Assembly (NCBI GenBank): GCA_050186075.1
Contig: JBFWYU010000004.1
Coordinates: 15,337-79,336, forward strand
Reading direction: 5' to 3'
DNA length: 64,000 nucleotides
Source: Bacteroidia bacterium
GTDB lineage: Bacteria; Bacteroidota; Bacteroidia; SXHM01
Under the pieces are notes generated by a model that ran no database searches, was not told the DNA's origin, and saw only the letters and a list, made by a program, of their open reading frames with translations. Positions 6,349-41,289 of the stretch are shown piece by piece. The position numbers were made by a program, and so were the translations under genes. Numbering within the stretch: position 1 is the stretch's first letter; each line of letters begins with the position of its first letter.

Positions 6349-6870
6349 TTACCCGAAATATTCCCTCACCGCCTTCTCCAACTCCTCCCCTTTTTGCGTT
6401 CCTATAAGCAACTTATCACCATTCTTCAGTTCTAGTTGCAGCCCCGTAGTTCCCGAAACATTACGCGCCTTATCCTTTCCCCAACCGCGTATTCCCCATC
6501 CGCCATATTCATAAATAGGTTTGTATTCACGCACATAAGCCTTTTCCAGTTCATCCCACCTCTTCAGTTTATACTTAATCTGAAAAGGAAAAAAACGATA
6601 ATAAACCCCTTCCGCATCCACTTTAGTATCCAACCTCAGCAAAACAAAAAATAAAATCAGCAGCGCAGGAACAGAACTAAACACCAACAGCATTTCATCA
6701 CTTGCCGGATTATCGCCAAACGGTTTACCCAAATAAAATTGCTGATACAAACCATAAACATGCAATCCTGCAACTCCAAAAATAATAAGCCATAGCCACC
6801 ATTGGGTAAAGCGTTGCGTTTCGGTGAAGGGTTTCATAGTGTATAAAGCATTAGTCCGGAAGGATTTCAT
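6349..6870 (-). CDS. Hypothetical membrane protein: two N-terminal TM helices and a C-terminal Gly/Trp-rich domain (bacterial PH-like?)
   Basis: 173 aa. Hydrophobic segments WWLWLIIFGVAGL and LLVFSSVPALLILFFVLL. C-terminus YEYGGWGIRGWGKDKARNVSGTTGLQLELKNGDKLLIG. Alternative start MKPF at 6837. Last gene of a minus-strand operon; terminator immediately downstream. Confidence 0.45.
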   Translation of the reverse strand: MKSFRTNALYTMKPFTETQRFTQWWLWLIIFGVAGLHVYGLYQQFYLGKPFGDNPASDEMLLVFSSVPALLILFFVLLRLDTKVDAEGVYYRFFPFQIKYKLKRWDELEKAYVREYKPIYEYGGWGIRGWGKDKARNVSGTTGLQLELKNGDKLLIGTQKGEELEKAVREYFG

Positions 6871-7402
6871 TGTCTAACTTTCTCATCAATCTGCTACAAA
6901 ACAATAGCAACTCAATTGCATCTATTTTTTGTATTTCAAAATTACCATGAGCTTTAGGATTACGAATTGCTAAAACCATTCCAGCAAAAATATATTTATA
7001 CCCTTCTTGCATTCCTTTCCAATCATCTTCGTCCTCGTTAAAGAGTCTAATTACCGGATTTTCTTGATTAAAAGCTTTCATCATAAGGCTTGTACCATCA
7101 TCTGTTTTTTTCGTTTTGCCTTTATAGTTCTTTTTAACTCTGCTAACAACTTCTACAATTGCGGCATAAACAGATTCTTTATAGTATTTATCATGAAACA
7201 ATTTAATAGAAACTTTATTAATCAAGGGATGTAATAAATCCGAAAGTTCTTTAAAACTACTCTTACTATCTAATTTATTAACTACTCTTCTTTTATTTTT
7301 AGGTTTATTGACGTCAATAAATACATCTATCGCTTTTTTAGCATCAGATTTTGAAATTTTGACCTTTTGAGCAATTATTTCTACTAGTTGAGCTTTGTTC
7401 AT
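6851..7402 (-). CDS. HU-like N-terminal helix segment fused to a HEPN-domain protein (predicted RNase, Rx4H motif RNPKAH)
   Basis: First ~31 aa MNKAQLVEIIAQKVKISKSDAKKAIDVFIDV match the alpha1-alpha2 region of Bacteroidetes HU proteins; the HU beta-arm is absent. C-terminus ...YKYIFAGMVLAIRNPKAHGNFEIQKIDAIELLLF carries the HEPN Rx4-6H signature (TIGR02391-like). Confidence 0.6.
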   Translation of the reverse strand: MNKAQLVEIIAQKVKISKSDAKKAIDVFIDVNKPKNKRRVVNKLDSKSSFKELSDLLHPLINKVSIKLFHDKYYKESVYAAIVEVVSRVKKNYKGKTKKTDDGTSLMMKAFNQENPVIRLFNEDEDDWKGMQEGYKYIFAGMVLAIRNPKAHGNFEIQKIDAIELLLFCSRLMRKLDNEILPD

Positions 7403-7487
7403 TTTACAACATATAAGTTTTCATACCCCAAAACTACCCAATTCCCGGGCACCCAACAAAAACCCTCCAAACTCTGCCATTTTCCCC

Positions 7488-7730
7488 TTACTTCTCGCCA
7501 TAAACCCTTGGCGTCTTTCCATATTCCTCTGGCGTCCTGCCAAAATTTCCTATATTCTTGCCAAATTTTCCTATATTCTTCCTAAAATCCTCTGTATCCT
7601 TGCCAAATTTCTCTGTATTCTTCCTGAAATCCTTTATATCCTTACCAAAATCATCTGTATTCTTACTAAATTCCTCTGTCTCCTTCCTGAATTTCTCTGT
7701 CTCCTCATCTGACACAATATGATCCTTCAC
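7488..7730 (-). CDS. Possible small protein made of 7-aa (F-x-K-x-T-E/D-E/D) tandem repeats; may be a non-coding 21-bp repeat instead
   Basis: 80 aa ORF, ...FRKETEEFSKNTDDFGKDIKDFRKNTEKFGKDTEDFRKNIGKFGKNIGNFGRTPEE...; same orientation as the two downstream genes. The opposite strand also gives an open (hydrophobic) frame, so coding status is unresolved. Confidence 0.3.
   Translation of the reverse strand: MKDHIVSDEETEKFRKETEEFSKNTDDFGKDIKDFRKNTEKFGKDTEDFRKNIGKFGKNIGNFGRTPEEYGKTPRVYGEK
7508..7718. repeat. Tandem array of ~10 degenerate 21-bp direct repeats
   Basis: Units tatattcttgccaaattttcc / tatattcttcctaaaatcctc / tgtatccttgccaaatttctc / tgtattcttcctgaaatcctt / tatatccttaccaaaatcatc / tgtattcttactaaattcctc / tgtctccttcctgaatttctc / tgtctcctcatctgacacaat, all in 21-nt phase. 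Confidence 0.75.
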
Positions 7731-7871
7731 AAACCCTCCTCACACCAAAACCACTAAACCCATCTCACTGCTCTTAGGTATATAACTTTTAACTCTTTTT
7801 ATGAAAAATCACCTTTGCGTCCCTGCACCTTTGCGAGCAATCTTATTTATCTTTGCCCAAAACCTATCACC

Positions 7872-9179
7872 ATGAAATACGCTCAAATTCCCAACAAACT
7901 CTTTATTGAAAACCGCAACCGTTTAGTCCAAAAACTGAAACCAAACTCAGTTGCCATTTTCAATAGCAATGATATTATGCCCACCAATGCCGATGGCACC
8001 ATGGCCTTCCGCCAGAACAGCGATTTGTTTTACCTCAGCGGCATCGACCAGGAAGAAAGCATCCTCATCCTCTTCCCCGATTCATTAAATAAGGACTACC
8101 GTGAAATCCTCTTCGTGCGCGAAACCAACGAGCACATTGCCATTTGGGAAGGCGCAAAACTTACCAAACAACAAGCTACCGAAGTTTCAGGTATAAAAAC
8201 CGTTTTCTGGCTCTCCGAGTTCGAGCGCGTGTTCAACACCGTTATGGCCGAAGCCCAAAACGTTTACCTTAACACCAACGAGCACCTGCGCGCCACCATT
8301 GAAGTAGAAACCCGCGATGCCCGCTTTATTAAAAAGTGTAAAGACCGTTTCCCCTTACATAACTATGAGCGCAGCTTTCCCCTTCTCATGGAACTCCGCT
8401 CCATAAAATCAGAAACCGAAGTAGAACTCATCAAACAAGCCTGCGCCATCACCAAAAAAGGATTTCTGCGCACCCTCAGTTTTGTAAAACCCGGAGTTAT
8501 GGAATACGAAATTGAAGCCGAACTCATCCACGAGTTTGTCCGCAACCGCTCGCGCGGCTTTGCCTACGGACCAATTATAGCCTCGGGCCTCAACTCCTGT
8601 GTGCTTCACTATGTTGAAAATAACCAGCAATGCAAAGACGGTGATATCCTGTTAATGGACGTGGCAGCCGAATACGCCAACTACGCCTCAGACCTTACCC
8701 GTTGCATTCCAGTAAACGGCAAATTTACCGAAAGACAAAAACAGGTTTACAATGCCGTTCTCCGCGTTATGAAAGAAGCAACTTCCATGCTTCGCCCGGG
8801 AATTATCATCAGCGAGTTTAATAAGGAAGTAGGTAAAATAATGGAGAAGGAATTAATCGGTCTTGGCCTGTTCACCGAAAAAGATGTGCGAGACCAGGAC
8901 AAAGACAAACCTCTTTACAAAAAGTATTTCATGCACGGCACCTCACACTTCCTTGGTCTGGATGTTCACGATGTGGGTGATTTCAATAAACCCGTTCAAC
9001 CCGGAATGGTCTTTACCTGCGAACCCGGCATCTACATACCTGCCGAAAAAATAGGCATCCGCTTAGAAAACGATATTTTGGTTACCAGCGGCAATCCCGT
9101 TGACCTCATGGCCGATATTCCTTTGGAAGCAAATGATATTGAAGCCCTGATGGCAGAATCAGTGAAGGTTCTTGTATAA
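7872..9179 (+). CDS. Xaa-Pro aminopeptidase, M24B family (aminopeptidase P-like)
   Basis: N-terminal AMP_N-like region and C-terminal pita-bread fold with metal ligands (DVAAEYANYASDLTR, HGTSHFLGLDVHD, EPGIY). Annotated ORF begins at TTG 7815; first ATG (MKYAQIP) at 7872 preferred. Confidence 0.85.
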   Translation: MKYAQIPNKLFIENRNRLVQKLKPNSVAIFNSNDIMPTNADGTMAFRQNSDLFYLSGIDQEESILILFPDSLNKDYREILFVRETNEHIAIWEGAKLTKQQATEVSGIKTVFWLSEFERVFNTVMAEAQNVYLNTNEHLRATIEVETRDARFIKKCKDRFPLHNYERSFPLLMELRSIKSETEVELIKQACAITKKGFLRTLSFVKPGVMEYEIEAELIHEFVRNRSRGFAYGPIIASGLNSCVLHYVENNQQCKDGDILLMDVAAEYANYASDLTRCIPVNGKFTERQKQVYNAVLRVMKEATSMLRPGIIISEFNKEVGKIMEKELIGLGLFTEKDVRDQDKDKPLYKKYFMHGTSHFLGLDVHDVGDFNKPVQPGMVFTCEPGIYIPAEKIGIRLENDILVTSGNPVDLMADIPLEANDIEALMAESVKVLV

Positions 9180-21949: not shown

Positions 21950-22640
21950 CTACCGGATTTTATCACAAAAGAACAACACAAAGTCCGAAGGACTTAAATA
22001 TGAATAACCCCGAATGCAATTCGGGAAAAAAAGCGGAGTTAACAACAACTCTAAAGGAGTTGAATAAAACAGTATGAGTACTTATACCCAAATAGTATAT
22101 CAAATAGTTTTCAGCACTAAGAACCGTGAACATACTCTTAAACCTGAAAGCAATAAAGATTTATACAAATACATTTGGGGTATATTAAAAAACAAAAAAT
22201 GTCATTTGTATCAGATAGGTGGTGTTGCTGACCATATTCATATTATAACTCATTTACATCCCTCCATAGCGCTTTCATCCTTGATTAAAGACATAAAACT
22301 GGCAAGTTCAGAGCACATAAAAAGTCATAATTTATTTCAAAACTTTTCAGGCTGGCAGGAAGGGTACGGAGCATTTACATATTCTATTAAAGATAAAGAC
22401 CGATTAATAGAATATGTAAAAAATCAGGAAGAACATCATCGAATAAAAACATTCAGAGAGGAGTATGTTGAATTGCTTAATGAGCATGGGATTGCATTCG
22501 ATGAGAAATTTCTTTTGTAATAACAATTCAACCACGTTGTGGTTGTTTTATATCTGCGTCATATAACCCCTGATTTCATCAGGGGTTATTCAAATTAAAT
22601 CCCTTCGGGATTTTTATAGAAGCTAGGCAGGATATTCTCT
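21950..22640 (+). mobile_element. Putative IS200/IS605-family element (tnpA only) with hairpin-rich ends
   Basis: Y1 transposase gene flanked upstream by hairpins (agtccgaaggact; cccgaatgcaattcggg) and downstream by three hairpins (caaccacgttgtggttg; ataacccctgatttcatcaggggttat; aaatcccttcgggattt). Exact ends not determinable from one copy. Confidence 0.4.
22074..22520 (+). CDS. tnpA: IS200/IS605-family Y1 (HUH) transposase TnpA, possibly a REP-associated tyrosine transposase (RAYT)
   Basis: 148 aa. HUH motif ADHIHIITHL; C-terminal catalytic Tyr context EYVKNQEEHH; size typical of TnpA_IS200. Confidence 0.7.
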   Translation: MSTYTQIVYQIVFSTKNREHTLKPESNKDLYKYIWGILKNKKCHLYQIGGVADHIHIITHLHPSIALSSLIKDIKLASSEHIKSHNLFQNFSGWQEGYGAFTYSIKDKDRLIEYVKNQEEHHRIKTFREEYVELLNEHGIAFDEKFLL

Positions 22641-29825: not shown

Positions 29826-30935
29826 CTATTTGCTTTTCAAAATCCAGTTCAGTCGTAAATTAAATGTCTTGAAATTTTTCCAGTCAGGCGAATTGTTGGT
29901 GTATTTGGGTTGAGAAAGTGAGGCAAAGTCAAAATTAATGTTCATTGGTATTTTAGTCAACTTGTAAAGAGGAACCTGAAGTCCGAGCCCGTATGTGAAA
30001 GGGGTAATTTTGTCGTAGTTGATGGATGGGTAACCAAAGTCATATTGTTTTTCAAAATAGTAACCAGCGCGAAGTGATAATATCTCAAAAAGCATTAGTT
30101 CACCACCTACCCGAATAGCGGTCTCATATTCTGAGTTTAAAAGGTTTTGGTATTCACCTTGAACTAAAAAAACAAGAGTTGTTAAAGTGTCTATAAGCAC
30201 GTGCTTGGCAAGGTTAAACTGATAATTTGCGCCAAAGCGAGCAACAACGGGCAAATCGTTTTTAATCGTTGTTCCGTTATATTCAAGTGTGATTTTGGAA
30301 TTATTAAGATTTGAAATGCTTGCCCCGACATTTAGTGAATGTCCGGTGCTTTGCTTTTGTAAGAATTTGATTTTTTTAATTATCCCAAAGTCAACGTAAA
30401 GTGAGTTGGCGGCTTTGTCAAGTCCCGGCTGCCAAACTAAATTGGTTAAGTTAAGTCCGATAAGAAGATTTTTTATTGGTTCAGAAGATACAGTCAACGT
30501 ATTTCTTTCGGAATAAGGTTTTTTGTTTACGTTTTGGATTTCTGTCTTACCAAAATCAAAGCGAAATTTAGAAACAGCAATCTGTATAGATGGTCCAGGT
30601 CCTGTTGGTAAAGGTGTCCACCCGCTCTTTTTAAACATATTGCGTAACGATAAGTTTAATCCTGCACTGAAATACCAATAATAACCTTCTGTCAAATAGA
30701 ATGGCGGTGGTGTATAAGAGCCATTTGTTTCTACACCTTTAATTGTTGCAGCACCCGCTGGATTAAAATAAATAGTAGTCAAGTCACCATCAATAGAAGT
30801 ATAACTTCTACCCATTGCCTCTGCACGTGCATTTTGTTGTCTGCCAAAAAAATTCTCTTTTAGGAAATAGTATTTATACTGTCCGAAAGAAGTAAACGGA
30901 AGTAGTAAAAGAAAAATGATTATCAGTCGTGTCAT
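29826..30935 (-). CDS. Outer-membrane beta-barrel protein, PorV/PorQ-like (T9SS-associated family), tentative
   Basis: Signal peptide. N-terminal ARAEAMGRSYTSIDGDLTTIYFNPAGAA motif reminiscent of the PorV/PorQ family; beta-strand periodicity; C-terminal aromatic. Confidence 0.4.
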   Translation of the reverse strand: MTRLIIIFLLLLPFTSFGQYKYYFLKENFFGRQQNARAEAMGRSYTSIDGDLTTIYFNPAGAATIKGVETNGSYTPPPFYLTEGYYWYFSAGLNLSLRNMFKKSGWTPLPTGPGPSIQIAVSKFRFDFGKTEIQNVNKKPYSERNTLTVSSEPIKNLLIGLNLTNLVWQPGLDKAANSLYVDFGIIKKIKFLQKQSTGHSLNVGASISNLNNSKITLEYNGTTIKNDLPVVARFGANYQFNLAKHVLIDTLTTLVFLVQGEYQNLLNSEYETAIRVGGELMLFEILSLRAGYYFEKQYDFGYPSINYDKITPFTYGLGLQVPLYKLTKIPMNINFDFASLSQPKYTNNSPDWKNFKTFNLRLNWILKSK

Positions 30936-31169
30936 TGGTCGTTTGCTTTAATTGCCCATAACTTATCTATACCCGAAACCTTATTTCGCATATCCACACC
31001 CCCTTGGTTAGACTTGCGAAAATTTGGTGTTATTGCATAGCATTCTGTCAACAACATTATTAAAATTATTTTATAAATCAAATACCAACAGCAATTTGTT
31101 GCTGAGGAAATACGGCCTTATACCGTAGTTGTTAAGGATGCACAGAAAAAGTAAAAGTATGTACACAGA

Positions 31170-31421
31170 ATTATAATGTTTGCATATATACTTATAAACT
31201 ATGCCCGGAGATTTATAAAGTTTGCAGAGATACTTTTTAACTATGTATAGTCGTTTATAAAGTTTGCCTGCATACTTTTAAACTATGCATAAAGAATATA
31301 TAAGTATGCACGCTTAGTTGTAAACTATGCATACAGAATTATAAAGTTTGTGTGCAGAATTATAAACTATGTATGCAGAATTATAACGTTTGCACAAATA
31401 CTTATACTTTTTGCAAGCATA
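31170..31421. repeat. Array of 12 strictly phased 21-bp AT-rich direct repeats (iteron-like), alternating two subtypes
   Basis: Units start at 31170, 31191, 31212 ... 31401 (exact 21-nt spacing). Type A ttataaagtttgcNNNNNatac, type B ttataaactatgNNNNNagaa (42-bp super-unit x6). Confidence 0.8.
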
Positions 31422-31694
31422 CTTAACTAAAATGGCGGAAAAAGAAAAAGCTTTCTTCACAAACCTGTAAGCGTTGCGAAGAAAGCTTTAAACTCCGGCT
31501 GCCGGACTGCCGGCTAAAAATTATTAATTGATGATGAGTGAATAAGGTTGACTCCAATTGCCTGTTCCGTCTTTAGGGGTGGTTACCCTATGGCGAAAAT
31601 ACTGACGCGTTACCGGCTGCAAGCCTGCAACAGTTGTAGTTGCCTTTATAGTTGTTGGCAAAGGTTGCCAGTTAATACCATCACCTGATGTAGC

Positions 31695-32144
31695 CTACTC
31701 ATGAAACGAACGCATGGGAGCGCCCGGAGCAAAAAGGTCAACTATACCTGAAGTAATTGTGTTTTTTGCATGAAACACTACTTTCTGCCTTATTGCAGTC
31801 ATTTTTATGCGCATGCCACCTTTTTCGGCTATGTCAGCAGCCTGTGAAGGGTTAGCATTAACAGCAGTTTGCACTACCACTTTCAGCATATTAATATCCG
31901 AAACTACTAATCCCAGCGGTATATTTCTTGCAGCAGCAGTGCCTGTTCCGGCTATAACGGCTGCCTCGGCATTTTCCAGTGCCTGAATATTGGCATCTAT
32001 TGCTGTAAGCACTGTAGCCGGAATTACAAAAAGTGCCGGATACTGTTGAATAGCTGCAAGCAATGCATCAGCATCCAGAATTAGTTGTGGAACTTTGGTA
32101 GCAATCTTGTAAACGACTACCGGATGTTTTGGAAAGTTTGTCAT
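31695..32144 (-). CDS. Hypothetical protein; ORF ends at a TAG that is followed in-frame by 57 further sense codons (31522..31694)
   Basis: 149 aa ORF. In-frame downstream extension ATSGDGINWQPLPTTIKATTTVAGLQPVTRQYFRHRVTTPKDGTGNWSQPYSLIIN. Confidence 0.4.
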   Translation of the reverse strand: MTNFPKHPVVVYKIATKVPQLILDADALLAAIQQYPALFVIPATVLTAIDANIQALENAEAAVIAGTGTAAARNIPLGLVVSDINMLKVVVQTAVNANPSQAADIAEKGGMRIKMTAIRQKVVFHAKNTITSGIVDLFAPGAPMRSFHE

Positions 32145-32314: not shown

Positions 32315-32587
32315 TTAGTTGTCTGCTTTTTTCTTTTTCCCTAACTCCTGGGGCAAAGGCAGGGGCGGTTCAAAGCCCATGTGGTCAAACAGCAGTTGCA
32401 GCATGGGTATGGTCCAGAAGTTTGAACCTCTTTTGCCGGAAGGGCGCAGGGCTTTGCGCATAGCATCTAACTCATCATTAATGCCCTCGATGTTCTTTTT
32501 AAATGTGTTTTTAGAATAACCATAGCGGGCTGCCAATGTTTTATTGGTTTCCTTATGGTATTTTGAAAAATCCCAGGTTTGCTTCAT
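32315..32587 (-). CDS. DUF4248-like small protein (family found in Bacteroidetes integrative/mobilisable elements)
   Basis: 90 aa; ...FWTIPMLQLLFDHMGFEPP resembles the conserved ...FTPAQV.LIVEYLGEP C-terminus of DUF4248 proteins; helix-turn-helix-like AARYGYSKNTF segment. Confidence 0.4.
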   Translation of the reverse strand: MKQTWDFSKYHKETNKTLAARYGYSKNTFKKNIEGINDELDAMRKALRPSGKRGSNFWTIPMLQLLFDHMGFEPPLPLPQELGKKKKADN

Positions 32588-34304: not shown

Positions 34305-34745
34305 ATGATGTTCTCTAAAAGTTGTGAGTATGCTATTAAAGCAGTGCTGCACTTATGTATTCACACCAAAGACGGGAACAAACTCGGCATACACGAAATT
34401 GCGGAAGCCATAGAATCGCCCGAACCATTTACGGCAAAAATTCTGCAAACGCTGGTAAAGCATAAAATCATCAATTCTTCAAAAGGTCCCGGTGGCGGTT
34501 TTTTTATTGATAAAAAAGCAAAGCCCATTGTAGTAATGGATATTATTGAAATCATTGACGGCAAATCAGCTTTTGAACGTTGCGGCCTTGGATTAAAACA
34601 CTGCGATGCCAGTCACCCCTGCCCTATTCATAATGAGTTTGTCAATTACTCACAGAAACTGAAAAACCTGTTGGAGAAAAAAACCATTCAGGAGTTTTCG
34701 GCAAGCATTGCGGCAGGAAAATCGTTTATCTCTAATTTAAGCTAA
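34305..34745 (+). CDS. Rrf2-family transcriptional regulator (IscR/NsrR-like, three-Cys cluster)
   Basis: N-terminal wHTH (CEYAIKAVLHLC...LGIHEIAEAIESPEPFTAKILQTLVKHKII); C-terminal Cys residues (C..C.....C) as in Fe-S Rrf2 regulators. Sits directly upstream of the nos locus. Confidence 0.8.
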   Translation: MMFSKSCEYAIKAVLHLCIHTKDGNKLGIHEIAEAIESPEPFTAKILQTLVKHKIINSSKGPGGGFFIDKKAKPIVVMDIIEIIDGKSAFERCGLGLKHCDASHPCPIHNEFVNYSQKLKNLLEKKTIQEFSASIAAGKSFISNLS

Positions 34746-34747
34746 AC

Positions 34748-34839
34748 CGTCATTGCGATCTGCCAGAGGCGGAGAAGCAATCTCCCGTTTAAATACTTTA
34801 CCTCATTGTAAGATTGCTCAGCTATCACCCGCAATCACG
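34748..34839. repeat. REP-like nested palindromic intergenic element, copy 2 of 4
   Basis: cgtcattgcgatctgccagaggcggagaagcaatctc...taagattgctcagctatcacccgcaatcacg; begins 3 nt after the Rrf2 stop. Confidence 0.65.
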
Positions 34840-34965
34840 TTATTATAACTCAATAAAAGATAAAAAGGTCTTTTTATTGACATTAATCATAATTTTGACT
34901 GACCGAACTCATTATGTATAACCCAACACGGGGCTAATTTTGTCCCGTAATCAAAAACAATCCTT

Positions 34966-35460
34966 ATGAAAAACATAACATTTAAACTAATTACAGGAAG
35001 TATTCTGGCAACAGCAATTGCAGTAATGGCAAGTTGCTCAGGAGGTGAAACAACCAATACCTCAGGCACAGCACCTGAAAGTATGATAAACAAACCTGCA
35101 GCCGATAACGGTGAAGGAATTGGAAAATTCAGCGGTATAACATTGGCAGCTTTTGATGCCACACTGGCTGCATCAGGCAAAAGCGTATTTGAAACCAAAT
35201 GCTCTGCCTGCCACAAAATAACCGACCAGAAAATTGTAGGTCCCGGACTTAAAGGCGTTACTCAACGCAGAAAACCAGCCTGGATTTTAAACATGATCAC
35301 TAATCCCGAGGAGATGACTAAAAAAGATCCTCAGGCAATGAAGTTGCTGGAAGAACACCTTACCCAAATGACCTTTCAGAATGTAACCGATGATGAGGCA
35401 AAAGCTATTCTCGAATACATGCGTGAAATAGACGGTGAAGGAACAACCGCACAACAATAA
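34966..35460 (+). CDS. Mono-haem c-type cytochrome lipoprotein (nos-associated)
   Basis: Lipobox MASCSGG; haem-binding CSACH; Met-rich C-terminal half. A TAATTTTG -7-type promoter motif lies at 34935..34942. Confidence 0.8.
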   Translation: MKNITFKLITGSILATAIAVMASCSGGETTNTSGTAPESMINKPAADNGEGIGKFSGITLAAFDATLAASGKSVFETKCSACHKITDQKIVGPGLKGVTQRRKPAWILNMITNPEEMTKKDPQAMKLLEEHLTQMTFQNVTDDEAKAILEYMREIDGEGTTAQQ

Positions 35461-35496
35461 TCACAATCAATTAAAACCAATCAAAACCAGTTAACA

Positions 35497-37479
35497 ATGA
35501 AAACACTAACATTAAAATCAATGGGGATATTTGCCGCCTGCATAGCAGCGGCAGGTATTATCAGCAGTTGTAAACCCAAAAAGGTTGACTCTGCTCTTTC
35601 AGGCGATGCAGCAGCAAAAGTTTATGTTGCACCGGGCAAATACGATGAAGTTTACTTATTCACTTCCGGTGGCTTTAGCGGACAGGTAGGCGTTTACGGT
35701 ATTCCTTCAGGTCGCATGCTGAAACAGGTTCCTGTATTTTCTATGGATGCCGAAACAGGATGGGGATACAGCGAAGAAACAAAACCTATGCTGATGACTT
35801 CACATGGTTTTGTTCCCTGGGATGATAGTCACCACCCGCAACTTTCACGTATGGAAGGTCAGGCAGATGGTCGTTGGCTGTTTATTAATGCCAACAACAC
35901 TCCGCGTATTGCACGTTTGGATTTAGGAGTATTTAAAACACGCGAAATTATTGAGTTGCCTAATACAGGAGGAAACCATGCTTCGCCTTTCACTACTCAG
36001 AATACCGAGTACGTTGTTGGTGCTTCACGCTTTTCTGTTCCGTATGATAAACAAGGTGATGAGGCTATTGCCGAATACAAAGACAAATTTAAAGGCACCA
36101 TTTCTTTTGTAAAAGTTGACAAAGAAACAGGTCGCATGAATTTGAATTTTCAGTTATTGGTTCCCGGAGTTGACTATGATCTGGCTCGCGCAGGTAAAGC
36201 AGTTTCTGACGGATGGGTTTTCTTCAGTTGCTACAACAGCGAAAAAGCACACTCATTGCTGGAAGTAAATGCTTCGCAACGCGACAAAGATTTTATTATG
36301 GCTGTGAACTGGAAAAAAGCTGAAGAATATTTAGCAGCAGGCAAAGGACAAAAATGGTCTGCAAACTATGCACACAATGTATATGACGAAGCAACACATA
36401 CAGCTACCACTACCATGGAAAAAGAAGTTACGGTGTTAGATGTTAAAGATTTGCCGGGCGTATGTTATTTTATTCCATGTCCTAAATCACCACACGGTTG
36501 CGATGTTGACCCTACAGGCGAATACATCTGTGCATCGGGTAAACTGGCTGCTGTAATTCCTGTTTACTCCTTCAGCAAAATGATAAAAGCTATTGAAGCA
36601 AAAGATTTTGAAGGCGATTTTGACGGAGTTCCTGTAATAAAATACGAAGCTGCATTGGATGGTGAAGTAGAACGTCCGGGACTTGGACCTCTGCACACCG
36701 AGTTTGATGCAAACGGCAATGCTTACACTTCATTCTTCGTATCATCAGAGATTGTAAAATGGAATGTTAAAACAAAACAAATCATTGACCGCGTTCCTAC
36801 TTACTACTCTATCGGTCACCTGTGTGTGCCAATGGGCGATAACATTACTCCTTACGGAAAATATGTAATTGCACTGAACAAAATCACCAAAGACCGCTAC
36901 CTGCCTACAGGACCTGAGTTAACTCAATCTGCTCAGTTGTATGACATCAGCGGAGAAAAAATGCAATTGCTGCTTGACTTCCCTACTATCGGTGAGCCAC
37001 ACTATGCACAGGCATGTCCTGCAGAAATTGTGCGTAAACACGAAGTTAAGTTCTATAAATTAGAAAATAACAACCATGCATATGCAGTAAAAAATGAGAA
37101 AGATGCAAAAGTTGTTCGCACCGGAAACGATGTACATATTTATGCAACCTCTATCCGTTCACACTTTACTCCCGATAATATTGAAGGAGTAAAAGTTGGC
37201 GACAATGTGTATTTCCACCTTACCAACCTTGAACAGGATTGGGATGTTCCGCACGGGTTTGCAATCAAAGGAGCTAACAATGCAGAGTTATTAATTCTGC
37301 CGGGCGAAACAGCAACACTTAAATGGGTTCCGGACAGAGTGGGTGTGTTCCCTATGTATTGCACCGACTTCTGCTCTGCTTTGCACCAGGAAATGCAAGG
37401 ATACATTCGTGTATCACCTGCGGGAAGCAATCCTGCATTGAAATACTCAACCGGAGAAGAAGCAGTTTCTGCAAAATAG
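35497..37479 (+). CDS. nosZ: Nitrous-oxide reductase, clade II (Sec/lipoprotein-type signal peptide)
   Basis: 660 aa. N-terminal Sec-type signal with lipobox-like SSC. Seven-bladed propeller region with conserved His ligands. C-terminal cupredoxin CuA motif H..CTDFCSALHQEM. Confidence 0.95.
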   Translation: MKTLTLKSMGIFAACIAAAGIISSCKPKKVDSALSGDAAAKVYVAPGKYDEVYLFTSGGFSGQVGVYGIPSGRMLKQVPVFSMDAETGWGYSEETKPMLMTSHGFVPWDDSHHPQLSRMEGQADGRWLFINANNTPRIARLDLGVFKTREIIELPNTGGNHASPFTTQNTEYVVGASRFSVPYDKQGDEAIAEYKDKFKGTISFVKVDKETGRMNLNFQLLVPGVDYDLARAGKAVSDGWVFFSCYNSEKAHSLLEVNASQRDKDFIMAVNWKKAEEYLAAGKGQKWSANYAHNVYDEATHTATTTMEKEVTVLDVKDLPGVCYFIPCPKSPHGCDVDPTGEYICASGKLAAVIPVYSFSKMIKAIEAKDFEGDFDGVPVIKYEAALDGEVERPGLGPLHTEFDANGNAYTSFFVSSEIVKWNVKTKQIIDRVPTYYSIGHLCVPMGDNITPYGKYVIALNKITKDRYLPTGPELTQSAQLYDISGEKMQLLLDFPTIGEPHYAQACPAEIVRKHEVKFYKLENNNHAYAVKNEKDAKVVRTGNDVHIYATSIRSHFTPDNIEGVKVGDNVYFHLTNLEQDWDVPHGFAIKGANNAELLILPGETATLKWVPDRVGVFPMYCTDFCSALHQEMQGYIRVSPAGSNPALKYSTGEEAVSAK

Positions 37480-37493
37480 GTTGAGCAATTAAA

Positions 37494-37527
37494 GGGGGAG
37501 GTATGGGTTTGCCTCCCCCTTTTTTTA
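37494..37527 (+). terminator. Rho-independent terminator / attenuator between nosZ and nosB-like gene
   Basis: gggggagg-tatgggtttg-cctccccc followed by tttttttt. Confidence 0.75.
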
Positions 37528-37548
37528 ACACTAAAAAATTTAAAAGTC

Positions 37549-38124
37549 ATGAAAACCATCAAACCATTTCTGAGGGTAGTGTTGTTGCTGTGTGGTATTG
37601 CCATGTTTGTTTCGCTCAAATTTCCTGCGTGGAAAATTCTGCTCGAAGCACCGCAATATCCTGAAGGATTAAAGATGGAAATATGGTCTGACCACATTGG
37701 TGGTGACATTGACAAAATAAACGGATTGAATCATTATATAGGAATGGCATTAATTAAGGAAGAAAATTTTCCTGAATTTAAAATTATGCCTTACCTGATT
37801 ATTGTAATGGGTGTTTTGGGTTTACTGGTTGCGGCAACCGGAAAACGTTGGATGCTGTGGATATTTGCAGGTTATCAATTGCTTTGCGGAATATGGGGTG
37901 TTTATGATTTCTGGAAATGGGAATATGAATACGGACACAATCTTGATCCGCATGCAGCCATAAAAATTGAAGGCATGGCTTATCAGCCACCACTCTTCGG
38001 ATGGAAACAATTACTGAACTTTCTGGCAGGCTCATTTCCCGATATCGGGGGCTGGCTTATCATTGGTGCTTCAGCAATTGTTATCTTAGTATTGGCTTAC
38101 GAGCAATACTTCAGAAAAAACTAA
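37549..38124 (+). CDS. NosB-like integral membrane protein (clade II nos clusters)
   Basis: 191 aa, 4-5 TM; position immediately after nosZ as in clade II loci. Confidence 0.55.
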   Translation: MKTIKPFLRVVLLLCGIAMFVSLKFPAWKILLEAPQYPEGLKMEIWSDHIGGDIDKINGLNHYIGMALIKEENFPEFKIMPYLIIVMGVLGLLVAATGKRWMLWIFAGYQLLCGIWGVYDFWKWEYEYGHNLDPHAAIKIEGMAYQPPLFGWKQLLNFLAGSFPDIGGWLIIGASAIVILVLAYEQYFRKN

Positions 38125-38143
38125 TTACTTTACATTTATAATT

Positions 38144-38584
38144 ATGAGAAATATGAATAAAATAACTGCGCTCATTTTTAGTGTATGCATATTTATTGTT
38201 TCGTGTTCAACCGAACCGCAACCAATAAACTACGGAAAAGATATGTGTGAACATTGCGGTATGACCATTATGGATAAAAAATTTGGTGCCGAAATGGTAA
38301 ACTCAAAAGGCAAAGCCATAAAATTTGATTCGGGCGAATGCATGGTAAGCTACATCAACAGCGATAATAAATTTGAAGCTGAACAATACCTTGTTGTAAA
38401 TTATAATTCGGAAGGTGAGTTGCTAAAGGCATCGGAAGCATTTTACCTGCATGGAGGAACAGTTGTAAGTCCTATGGGTGGCAATCTGGCTGCTTTTAAA
38501 ACAAAAGAAGATGCTGAAAAATCCAATCAGGAATTTGCTGCTGATCTGCTTACCTGGGACGATGTAAAAAAGATTAACTTTTGA
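38144..38584 (+). CDS. nosL: Copper chaperone lipoprotein NosL
   Basis: Lipobox IVSCST; MCEHCGM copper-binding motif; ATGA overlap with nosD. Confidence 0.85.
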   Translation: MRNMNKITALIFSVCIFIVSCSTEPQPINYGKDMCEHCGMTIMDKKFGAEMVNSKGKAIKFDSGECMVSYINSDNKFEAEQYLVVNYNSEGELLKASEAFYLHGGTVVSPMGGNLAAFKTKEDAEKSNQEFAADLLTWDDVKKINF

Positions 38585-39819
38585 AAACATTTGCTTTATC
38601 ATGCTTCTCTATTGTTGTTTTTTGCTTCTTTTCACAGGCAAAAACAATTGTGGTTTGTCCCCAATGCAAGGTAACACAGCTTACCACAGCACTTGAATTA
38701 GCTGTTGACCATGACACCATTCTTGTAAAAAAAGGAAGCTACATTTCGGTAAACACCGAAATAAAAAAACAGGTTGTTATTATTGGCGAGGATTACCCTG
38801 TAATTGACGGACAGGAAAAAGATGAAGTGCTGGTAGTTTTAAGCGACAATGTTGTTATTTCAGGTTTATGGGTAAAAAACTCTAAGCGCGGAAGTATGAA
38901 AGATTACGCAGGAATAAGAGTAGTTGATTCGCGTAACGTGAAAATAATAAATTGCAAACTGGAAAATACTTTTTTCGGAATATACCTGAGCAAATCACAA
39001 AATTGCCTGATTACAAACAACCACAGCAAAGGTGCCAACTATGGTAAAAGCGATACAGGTAATGGCATTCACTTATGGAAATGCGACAGTGTAAAAATTG
39101 AAAACAACCACATGGAAGGTCATCGTGACGGAATGTATTTTGAGTTTGCACACTTTTGCCTGATTGAAAAAAATTTATGCGAAAAAAATTACCGTTATGG
39201 TTTGCACTTCATGTTTTCGGATGATGATGTTTACCGCAACAATACGTTTCAGAATAACGGAACAGGTGTAGCTGTTATGTACACCAAAAATGTGGAAATG
39301 TATGATAACACCTTTCAGAACAATTGGGGTGATGCAGCTTACGGCTTGCTTTTGAAAGACATCAGCAACAGCATTATTGAAGGAAATACATTTACCAACA
39401 ACACAGTTGGTGTAACCATGGAAGGCTCGAACATGATAACGTTTTCAAAAAACAATTTCACCTCCAACGGCTATGCACTAAAGGTGATGGCCAATTGCAT
39501 ACGCGATACGTTTATGTATAATAACTTTACCGCAAACACCTTTGATGCTGCCACTAATGGTGAGCTGCGCGAAAACAGTTTTATGTACAATTACTGGGAT
39601 AAATACGAGGGCTATGATTTAAACCGCGACAAAATCGGTGATATTCCTTTTCGCCCGGTAAGCTTGTATTCTATGATAATTGAACAGATGCCTTATGCTG
39701 TAATGTTGCTGCGCAGTTTTACTGTTGAGATTTTAAATCGTGCCGAAAAAAGCATTCCGGGAATTGTTCCCGAAACATTTCAGGATTATGCACCCATGAT
39801 GAAACCAAACATTCTATGA
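38581..39819 (+). CDS. nosD: Periplasmic copper-binding protein NosD (parallel beta-helix repeats)
   Basis: Signal peptide; repeated N-x-F/I beta-helix rungs (NNTFQNNGTGVAV, DNTFQNNWGD, GNTFTNNTVGV ...). Confidence 0.85.
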   Translation: MKTFALSCFSIVVFCFFSQAKTIVVCPQCKVTQLTTALELAVDHDTILVKKGSYISVNTEIKKQVVIIGEDYPVIDGQEKDEVLVVLSDNVVISGLWVKNSKRGSMKDYAGIRVVDSRNVKIINCKLENTFFGIYLSKSQNCLITNNHSKGANYGKSDTGNGIHLWKCDSVKIENNHMEGHRDGMYFEFAHFCLIEKNLCEKNYRYGLHFMFSDDDVYRNNTFQNNGTGVAVMYTKNVEMYDNTFQNNWGDAAYGLLLKDISNSIIEGNTFTNNTVGVTMEGSNMITFSKNNFTSNGYALKVMANCIRDTFMYNNFTANTFDAATNGELRENSFMYNYWDKYEGYDLNRDKIGDIPFRPVSLYSMIIEQMPYAVMLLRSFTVEILNRAEKSIPGIVPETFQDYAPMMKPNIL

Positions 39820-40529
39820 TACGCACCGAGCAATTAGAAAAGAGTTTTGGCAAGTTGCATGTACTGAAAGGATTGGACGTTGAGTTTACTGCCGGACAGG
39901 TAGTGAGTATTATCGGACACAACGGTTCCGGAAAAACAACGCTTATCAAATGTATTCTTGGAATGGTGGTTGCCGACAAAGGCAAAATATTTTTTGACGG
40001 GAAAAGCATTTCCGGTGATTTCCGCTATCGCGAACAGATTGGCTATATGCCGCAGATAGGACATTATCCCGAGAACATGAAAATCGGTCAGATTTTTAAA
40101 ATGATGAAAGACCTTCGAAAAAATGCTACTTCGTTAGATGAAAGCCTGATGGAAGAATATAAACTTTCTGAACTTTTTGAAAAACCCATGCATGCACTTT
40201 CGGGCGGAACAACTCAAAAGGTAAGTGCATCACTGGCATTTCTGTTTAACCCTAAAGTGTTGATTTTAGATGAACCTACCGCAGGACTTGATCCATTGGC
40301 TGCAGAGATTTTGAAAGCAAAAATTATAGAAGCAAAGAGTAAAGGAAAGCTGGTTATCATTACTTCACACATTATGAGCGAGGTAGAAGAAATGGCAGAC
40401 ACAGTAATGTATTTATATGAAGGGAAAGTAAATTTTCACAACTCAGTTGCTGAATTGAAAAAACAAACCGGTGAAGAAAAAGTGGGAAAGGCAATTGCTA
40501 AAATCATGAAACAATCTGCCCATGTTTAA
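39816..40529 (+). CDS. nosF: ABC transporter ATP-binding protein NosF
   Basis: Walker A GHNGSGKTT, signature LSGGTTQK, Walker B ILILDEP. Confidence 0.85.
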   Translation: MIRTEQLEKSFGKLHVLKGLDVEFTAGQVVSIIGHNGSGKTTLIKCILGMVVADKGKIFFDGKSISGDFRYREQIGYMPQIGHYPENMKIGQIFKMMKDLRKNATSLDESLMEEYKLSELFEKPMHALSGGTTQKVSASLAFLFNPKVLILDEPTAGLDPLAAEILKAKIIEAKSKGKLVIITSHIMSEVEEMADTVMYLYEGKVNFHNSVAELKKQTGEEKVGKAIAKIMKQSAHV

Positions 40530-41289
40530 GATAGCTAAATATGTAGTGTACGATATTTTGCGCAGTAAGGTGCTGATTGCTTATTCCTTGTTCTTACTGC
40601 TGGTTTCATTCAGCCTATTTAGCATGGAAGAAAACAGCTCAAAAAGTTTAATCAGCCTGATGAGTGTGGTAATGATTATTGTTCCGTTAGTGAGTATTAT
40701 TTTTTCTACAACTTATTTCTATAATGCCTACCAGTTTATTGAATTACTGGTGGCACAGCCCATCAGCCGAAGCTCTATTCTGATGGGCGAGTTTTTGGGT
40801 GTTTCTGTTTCATTGCTTACCGCCTTACTTTTAGGCGTTGGTATTCCTGTTTTGATTTACGCTCCGGATGCAACCGGATTTGTATTGATGATTTCAGGGT
40901 TTGCACTCACGCTTTCATTTATCTCTTTGGCGTTTTTCTCATCTGTTGCCATGCGTGATAAAGCCAAAGGAATAGGAATGTCGCTGATGCTTTGGTTCTA
41001 TTTTTCGGTAATTTATGACGGACTTGTATTAGGTATTCTCTTCTCATTCAATGAATATCCGCTGGAGAAGGCAGTAATTGCTTTGGCCTCTTTTAACCCT
41101 ATTGACCTGGGCAGAATAATTATTCTGATGAAAATGGATATTTCAGCTCTGATGGGATTGACAGGTGCTGTTTACAAACAGTTTTTCGGAAGCAGTTTTG
41201 GCATAATTTACAGCCTTTCCATCATGCTCATATGGATTACAGCTCCACTGCTGATTGCCCTGCGAATCTTCAAAAGAAAGAACTTATAG
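40522..41289 (+). CDS. nosY: ABC-2 type permease NosY
   Basis: 255 aa, 6 TM; overlaps nosF by 8 nt. Confidence 0.75.
   Translation: MFKIAKYVVYDILRSKVLIAYSLFLLLVSFSLFSMEENSSKSLISLMSVVMIIVPLVSIIFSTTYFYNAYQFIELLVAQPISRSSILMGEFLGVSVSLLTALLLGVGIPVLIYAPDATGFVLMISGFALTLSFISLAFFSSVAMRDKAKGIGMSLMLWFYFSVIYDGLVLGILFSFNEYPLEKAVIALASFNPIDLGRIIILMKMDISALMGLTGAVYKQFFGSSFGIIYSLSIMLIWITAPLLIALRIFKRKNL

Follow-up and report, generated by a model that had tools for sequence, protein, structure and literature searches.

Iterons are typically direct repeats of 17-22 bp with a phasing of about 21-22 bp, and in P1 and F an iteron array is found just downstream of the initiator gene. Tandem-repeat plasmid centromeres, such as parC of R1 and pSK41 with its ParR protein, sopC of F (12 copies of 43 bp) and the single-protein par system of pSK1, are among the closest known systems to the locus described here. 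The signature of type III toxin-antitoxin (TA) systems is a gene with an adjacent tandem array that changes in sequence along with the protein. Lastly, direct repeats spaced at 21 bp are typical of LytTR-type regulators. Here, we describe a tandem array of 21-bp units in a 64,000-nucleotide stretch (hereafter the window) of contig JBFWYU010000004.1 from a Bacteroidia bacterium (GenBank assembly GCA_050186075.1). On one side the array is flanked by a PorV/PorQ-family outer-membrane protein gene, and on the other by a gene for a basic protein of 206 aa with a predicted FN3 domain. As judged from the loci at which relatives of these genes occur, the array is tied to the FN3-family gene and not to the outer-membrane gene.

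When positions 31107-31484 are written as rows of 21 bases, all units of the array fall in register with zero insertions or deletions. Twelve units are clear (starts 31170 to 31401), the unit at 31149 is weaker, and positions 31128-31148 represent a possible extra degenerate unit or relic. Two unit types, A (AAAGTTTGC) and B (AAACTATGC), alternate along the array. The original prediction of 12 strictly phased 21-bp units of alternating type, forming six copies of a 42-bp super-repeat, was thus confirmed by the row register, by Tandem Repeats Finder (TRF; on 31154-31406, period 42 with 6.0 copies, 72% matches and a score of 203, and period 21 with 11.5 copies and 61%), and by a repeat-pair search in which the start-to-start spacing was exclusively 21 or 42. 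The unit consensus is nTTATAAA[G/C]T[T/A]TG[C/T]A...A.A, of which T10, T12 and G13 are unchanged in 13/13 units. Since its central AAA(G/C)TTT is near-palindromic, the G/C alternation amounts to an alternating core orientation. The gcatac/gtatgc palindromes that had been ascribed to every unit are present in some units, though not in all. With at most one mismatch allowed, nine copies of the core 13-mer are found in the array and one elsewhere in the 64 kb (0.9 expected), and a pattern built on the skeleton of three units was observed three times against 0.00 expected. The GC content of the array is 27%, compared with 40% for the window. Two other assemblies of the organism (L046 and L047) contain the identical array with zero differences. 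The identity between units is 61-72% in the window array, which is the lowest of all arrays that we found, versus 76-96% in the others.

Homologues of the 206-aa protein with 84% to 33% identity were taken from independent assemblies, and the DNA around them was inspected. Wherever the downstream DNA was usable, in 6/6 lineages, an array with a period of 21 or 42 bp begins ∼25-135 bp past the stop codon of the FN3-family gene (Table 1). The arrays in these six lineages are ∼190-315 bp long, with one of them cut by a contig end, and the flanking genes differ at every locus. In L048 and L057 the contig runs out no more than ∼85 bp past the stop codon, short of any visible array, while the contigs of L050-L053 end inside the arrays, as short-read assemblies tend to at repeats. 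A background of 234 kb was scanned for other arrays with a period of 21, 42, 63 or 84 and a TRF score of at least 100, and this returned only an array at 7.5 kb in the window and a two-copy 42-mer. The background rate is therefore ∼0.3% per 400-bp interval, and at this rate chance arrays in five further independent lineages are not credible. On this sequence evidence, the link between array and gene family persists through deep divergence and in changing genomic surroundings.

The annotation of more distant family members bears on the same linkage. Among 148 family representatives 22 are at least 232 aa long, and 21 of these are extended at the N-terminus by 35 aa or more. For at least 10 of the 21 extended members, the added residues form a low-complexity repeat whose period is 7, 14, 21 or 28 residues, for example PGLSHGV x 13, TASVLVV x 9, and 14-mers of the PPEVGLA type; the repeat peptides are mutually unrelated. 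These N-terminal repeats are best read as an extension by the gene caller through a stop-free 21/42-bp array that lies just upstream of the true start. The heptad-period extensions in distant members would mean that the gene-array linkage reaches far past the close relatives, and that the array can occur on either side of the gene. Several database entries of 250-400 aa (P0142, P0220, P0234, P0217, P0195 and others) display such spurious N-terminal heptad repeats, which are an annotation artefact.

The 21n period, the strict register and a number of ∼8-16 motif copies are kept across the arrays, while the sequence itself changes. A core AAGTT(T)G / CAA(A)CTT is common to 5/6 arrays, and the 11-mer ATAAAGTTTGC is present in both the window and L054, where it lies on opposite strands with respect to the gene; by our own estimate, such a match between two 21-mers has a chance probability of ∼2e-4. 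The similarity between the window and L049 units in rotation matching was not above that of shuffles. The arrays of L049 and L053, whose proteins are 84% identical, are homologous but inverted relative to the gene, and in both of them the motif orientation alternates every ∼21 bp. In L049, L053 and L056 an inverted unit caps the edge nearest the gene. Among the seven L049 units, nearly all differences are in a single dinucleotide, and the remaining ∼40 positions are close to fixed. By these comparisons the period and overall size are conserved, the sequence turns over, and the orientation and the gene side are free. The 42-bp array of L049 is bracketed by a perfect 13-bp inverted repeat, ATGTGTCAACTAT / ATAGTTGACACAT (1235-1247 and 1568-1580); arrays of this type were found in one orientation in 4/4 samples, and a clear inverted repeat of this kind is missing from the flanks of the other arrays. 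Just past the L049 array, repeats of 110-117 bp surround a DUF559 gene (1622-2775) and look like a separate short-repeat family.

Several roles that the array might have had as a coding or transcribed sequence were rejected. A coding repeat, in which seven codons would make up 21 bp, does not fit the stops in all six frames of the window array, nor is any core-defined frame open in all arrays. A promoter array was rejected because the TTTG spacing does not match the Bacteroidetes -33/-7 geometry, TAnnTTTG is absent from the array, and a sigma-70-type scan gave hits at chance level. Apart from a single copy in L056, which faces away from the array, this Bacteroidetes -7 motif is found neither in nor within 200 bp of any of the arrays. 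At four loci (window, L048, L049 and L053), a terminator hairpin lies between the gene and the array side. The window array folds better than shuffled sequences on both strands (z -2.9 and -3.7), which reflects a palindromic property at the duplex level. With these similar z-scores, and with an Rfam scan of the array that returned no match, a structured RNA was rejected as well. The flipped orientations, closed frames, lack of promoters, terminators, absence of an Rfam match and strand-symmetric folding together favour the array being a strand-independent, double-stranded DNA element, with its putative sites on one helical face.

The protein encoded next to the array belongs to a large family. 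Full-length members of the family are 206-207 aa long and, in the structure model, consist of an N-terminal three-helix bundle and a C-terminal FN3 beta-sandwich. The C-terminal FN3 half is basic, with a pI of 10-11 in 9/9 members for which it was computed. Conserved basic residues of the protein are R73 and those in the RQKVVFHAKN linker and the YFRHR strand. A family profile search of 1.84 billion representatives yielded 1,627 clusters at E<=1e-3 and 849 at E<=1e-10, nearly all of 200-215 aa. Scans against Pfam and NCBIfam gave no family-level match apart from fn3. The fn3 model was reached in the C-terminal half by 17/65 members, and other than fn3-type domains none was matched in any number. 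PHROG matches were weak and to FN3-bearing tail proteins, and five family members had no match in PADLOC at E<=1, and hence none to its toxin models.

The window copy of this gene is interrupted, as the original prediction had correctly pointed out. The in-frame TAG stands where homologues have a Trp (FHEW motif; TGG to TAG) that all close full-length homologues retain, as do no fewer than 90% of 65 diverse members of the family, so that the window copy is a nonsense pseudogene. The identical TAG was found in the L046 and L047 assemblies. Since the remainder of the frame is intact, the inactivation looks recent. In the nearest relative with data, at 80% identity (L057 1515-2514; Logan SRR28161539), a small helix-turn-helix-like gene (P0124) is frameshifted and the FN3-family gene (P0119) is truncated, by which the cassette of gene and array appears to be decaying independently in a neighbouring lineage. 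With its gene nonsense-mutated and its units the most diverged of all arrays, the window cassette is, by its sequence, itself decaying.

The small gene preceding the FN3-family gene in the window encodes a helical protein of 90 aa. Homologues are present at the same position in L048, L053 and L055, while L049/L050 have a different small gene there and none was called in L054 and L056; this helix-turn-helix-like gene is, by its distribution, an optional third part of the cassette. An earlier assignment of the 90-aa protein as DUF4248-like found no support in Pfam. Also, the small genes next to the array had been considered mobile-element-like, but for neither of them did Pfam, NCBIfam, PHROGs or PADLOC return a mobile-element family.

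We give roughly even chances to the explanation that the array is a phased, strand-independent, protein-binding cis partner of the FN3-family gene. It would then form the cis half of a two-part cassette, with the FN3-family gene, sometimes preceded by the small helix-turn-helix-like gene, as the other half. The ∼8-16 short recognition motifs would be spaced at two helical turns (21 bp, or 42 bp where the orientation alternates), and this spacing would let all sites face one way on the helix. In the most economical mechanism, a protein encoded by the cassette would then load cooperatively and form one extended nucleoprotein complex over ∼190-315 bp. Such a complex might serve in titration or copy control, in segregation or tethering, in silencing, or in defence. 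We infer that the ligand is a protein that binds double-stranded DNA, and specifically the FN3-family protein. This basic protein, with its C-terminal half of pI 10-11, is the best candidate binder and the sole universally linked one. Some observations weigh against this explanation. The comparison at the DNA level comprises only six lineages, which have shared ancestry. Position-specific conservation in the window array is statistically weak (42-column heterogeneity test, p = 0.26), and the conserved unit length could also stem from an RNA-protein assembly. Moreover, there were no copies of the array motif in the promoter regions of the cassette genes, and simple autoregulation is thus not evident.

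The strongest alternative is an RNA partner of the type III kind, in which the array is transcribed and cut into units of 21/42 nt that bind the basic FN3-family protein, as in a ToxI/ToxN-like TA system. We consider this doubtful. A gene with an adjacent array that co-varies with it in sequence is indeed what type III TA loci look like; the protein is very basic, and both the window and L057 have its gene as a pseudogene, as is seen with toxins. In at least ten distant members the array, as deduced from the protein repeats, immediately precedes the gene, as it does in type III loci, and the L054 array begins 25 bp past the stop codon without a terminator. In the six lineages read at the DNA level, however, the gene comes first and the array second, with a terminator ahead of the array side in four loci. 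The 42-nt units of L049 and L053 have inverted arms of 8-9 nt that could make a hairpin, but the direct 21-nt arrays of the window, L054 and L056 would give very different RNAs, and the orientation flips between close relatives would alter the RNA sequence. No promoter motif flanks any of the arrays other than the one in L056 that points away, and no array match is found in Rfam. Lastly, the ToxN fold is unlike the three-helix bundle plus FN3 that is predicted for this family, and PADLOC remained blank for the five members searched, toxin models included.

An explanation that we regard as improbable is that the array is a neutral minisatellite without function, kept by unequal crossing-over and merely co-inherited with the gene. 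The weak position-specific constraint noted above would fit this, as would the dead partner gene in the window and the unit identities that range from 61% to 95% within arrays, as under concerted evolution. A neutral repeat does not readily account for a 21n period, length and gene adjacency that are kept down to 33% protein identity while all flanking genes change, or for the recurrence of an array upstream of distant family members. Also the restriction of L049 unit variation to almost a single dinucleotide argues against it.

The original prediction interpreted the array as the iterons of a replication origin or copy-control array left by an integrated plasmid or phage. From this reading the phased, binding-site-like array stands, as does its association with the small genes on the right rather than with the PorV/PorQ-like gene; the origin or element remnant does not, and we now rate it as very unlikely. 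The array is AT-rich, its direct repeats are in an exact 21-bp register like those of iterons, and the cassette occurs in variable genomic contexts. However, the proposed search for a Rep/initiator or relaxase gene was negative for the ORFs scanned from 10 to 49 kb, which also include no integrase or partition gene, and the two cassette proteins have no Rep-type match in Pfam, NCBIfam or PHROG. DnaA-like 9-mers (at most one mismatch) are at background, with one between positions 30 and 33 kb versus 23 in the whole window, and the window contains no second, origin-side iteron cluster. The GC skew, which had been suggested as a check against a chromosomal origin, does not turn at the array. Neither the array (blastn) nor the family proteins (tblastn) had a match in 72,556 plasmids, 50,697 phages, or viral contigs, so that the suggested search for the 21-mer on plasmids and phages came back empty.

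Motif searches in wider sequence collections gave a similar picture. Two pattern scans for same-motif arrays in viral contigs returned unrelated generic 21-bp tandem repeats or other spacings, and the five matches in species-representative genomes were all of two units or at chance level. An A-B-A pattern scan of metagenome contigs yielded nothing. Broader alignments of the protein family lacked a conserved stretch with which viral contigs could be searched. One of the five matches in species-representative genomes, L043 (700-800) in the metagenome-assembled genome 'bacterium DBS2-4.bin161' (JAJYMT010000073.1), has 3-4 units phased at 21 bp (TTATAAACTATGCAA) plus one inverted copy. Its core is nearly that of the window B unit, and the units are directly upstream of a gene with a MerR/excisionase-type helix-turn-helix-like N-terminus. 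Because the organism and the gene are unrelated, this resemblance is probably a coincidence.

Just as unlikely as the replication origin is an upstream regulatory array of the PorV/PorQ-family gene, for instance response-regulator sites on 21-bp-spaced direct repeats: although the array sits on the promoter side of this gene, 235-486 bp upstream, it follows the FN3-family gene at loci with no such outer-membrane gene nearby, and its motif is nowhere else in the 64 kb. The closest PorV/PorQ-like homologues (68%, 59% and 52% identity) are not syntenic and have short upstream regions without a 21/42-bp array. The array is thus not conserved along with the PorV/PorQ-like gene. Conservation of the array upstream of PorQ orthologues had been named as an outcome that speaks for a regulatory array over an origin; the opposite was found, yet the origin gained no evidence from this either.

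The surroundings of the array are those of an ordinary chromosome. To its right are, in order, the terminator hairpin, the TAG-interrupted ORF, the 90-aa ORF and a fasciclin gene, all on the minus strand (Table 1); the hairpin terminates the FN3-family gene and parts it from the array. To the left, the PorV/PorQ-family gene is followed by membrane and fatty-acid-hydroxylase genes. The interval that separates the array from the start of the outer-membrane gene holds a short hairpin, CAGCAACAAATTGCTG (31089-31104), and then a T-rich run on the minus strand; a canonical Bacteroidetes -7 motif was not found upstream of this gene. A nitrous-oxide reductase cluster is located on the plus strand at 34305-41289, with an Rrf2-family regulator gene followed by cytochrome c, NosZ, NosL, NosD and ABC-transporter genes. 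Farther out, the window contains genes for ribonucleotide reductase, NAD kinase, pyrF, peroxiredoxin and ceramidase. A lone IS200-like Y1 transposase gene (22074-22520; 148 aa, Pfam Y1_Tnp, E = 3e-22) is 9 kb from the array and has no copy of the array motif near it.

Table 1. Features around the window array, and arrays downstream of homologues of the FN3-family gene (identities are those of the encoded protein to the window copy).
Feature	Position	Strand	Description
Tandem repeat array	31149..31421	no strand	13 units, exact 21-bp register; A/B alternation giving a 42-bp super-repeat x 6
Intrinsic-terminator-like hairpin	31437..31494	minus	Arms 31447-31462 and 31474-31489, 16 nt, 94% complementary, then CTTTTTCTTTTTCC
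FN3-family pseudogene	31524..32144	minus	ORF with in-frame TAG at 31695-31697
Gene for 90-aa helical, helix-turn-helix-like protein	32315..32587	minus	Upstream of FN3-family gene
PorV/PorQ-family outer-membrane protein gene	29826..30935	minus	369 aa; NCBIfam PorV_fam 71.5 bits, under cut-off
Array at L049-L052 (P0117)			58% identity; 42 bp x 7.2, 95% matches; unit AGTTGTCACCGATAAGGAAATACGTGACAACTTATTGCTTAT
Array at L053 (P0115)			58% identity; 42 bp x at least 5.4, contig ends inside array; unit TCTTTATCGGTAACACAACTAAGCAAGTTTGTGTCACGTATT
Array at L054 (P0120)			48% identity; 21 bp x 12-16; unit CTTATAATCATAAAGTTTGCT
Array at L055 (P0118)			55% identity; ∼8 units of 21 bp, two inverted halves; unit CAAGTACATAATCAAAGTTGA
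Array at L056 (metagenome)			33% identity; 21 bp x 10.4; unit AAGGGAGATGTTTCCGTTCAC

The array at 7.5 kb mentioned above (7538-7705; period 21/42/63) lies in a divergent gap of 413 bp, with an ORF at 7815-9179 on one side and, on the other, a minus-strand gene (6851-7402) whose N-terminus is HU-like. Translation of the array's minus strand gives an open, hydrophilic heptad repeat (...FGKDTEDFRKNIGKFGKN...) with a stop codon at ∼7486-7488, and it may encode a small repeat protein. No FN3-family gene is found beside it. The statement that the 31-kb array is unrelated to this repeat was borne out by sequence comparison.

If the link between gene and array holds, a family of ∼1,600 clusters (at 50% identity) with no family-level annotation gains a concrete and testable partner, and each lineage-specific array becomes a ready probe for binding assays. 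Such studies could reveal a bacterial FN3/Ig-fold nucleic-acid binder, and a new class of self-contained gene-plus-array cassettes in segregation, titration, silencing or defence. The linkage also explains why genes of this family are found at contig ends in metagenome assemblies, and why some members have spurious heptad-repeat N-termini in protein databases. For the window itself, a candidate replication origin and a candidate PorQ regulator are dropped.

More tentatively, the cassette may represent a new autonomous two-part system in which an FN3/Ig-fold protein recognises its own lineage-specific array of ∼8-16 sites and builds a long nucleoprotein filament. Such a cassette would be widespread in uncultured Bacteroidota and other phyla, some of them high-GC, would move between chromosomal contexts, and would be unrelated to Rep-iteron, Par-centromere, CRISPR and known toxin-antitoxin families. 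This wider proposal is possible, and we hold it with clearly less confidence than that of a protein-binding cis partner. Literature searches found no description of such arrays.

Compared with known systems, some resemblances are partial. A CRISPR array does not fit: rather than repeats with unique spacers between them, the array consists of two alternating types of 21-bp unit, each of them conserved, and its period is too short for a CRISPR. A Bacteroidetes invertible promoter region would have flanking inverted repeats, a promoter and both orientations; the 13-bp inverted repeat of L049 and the difference in orientation between L049 and L053 point towards this, and the single orientation in the four L049-type samples, the absence of a TAnnTTTG motif inside any of the arrays and the unclear flanks of the other arrays point away from it. 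REP/BIME elements share imperfect palindromic units, alternating orientation and an intergenic location just past genes or terminators with arrays of the L049 and L053 type. Unlike REP/BIME, the motif is not dispersed, with no other copy in the 64-kb window, and it is tied to one gene family and held in a strict 21n register.

With type III TA systems (ToxIN, CptIN, TenpIN) the cassette has in common that one protein gene and an array change together, that the gene is often decayed, that the unit is of similar length (∼36-45 nt, versus 42 here), and that a terminator lies between array and gene. It differs from them in having no ToxN, CptN or TenpN match (PADLOC) and in the modelled three-helix bundle with a beta-sandwich. 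In addition, the array is downstream in the loci that were read, its orientation is unfixed, several arrays are plain direct arrays of 21 nt, and there is no evident promoter.

The partner NTPase of plasmid centromeres (ParA, ParM or TubZ) was found neither in the neighbourhood of the array in the window nor in related loci. The array differs from the iteron copy-control arrays of P1 (incA) and F (incC) in the absence of a Rep-type initiator and of origin-side iterons, and in DnaA boxes that are at background; it is chromosomal and not seen on plasmids or phages, it can be on either gene side in either orientation, and the protein has a helical-bundle plus FN3 fold. At the same time, it resembles incA and incC in having roughly 9-12 direct repeats of ∼19-22 bp on one helical face, with a lineage-specific sequence and a position next to the gene of the proposed binder, here the FN3-family protein.
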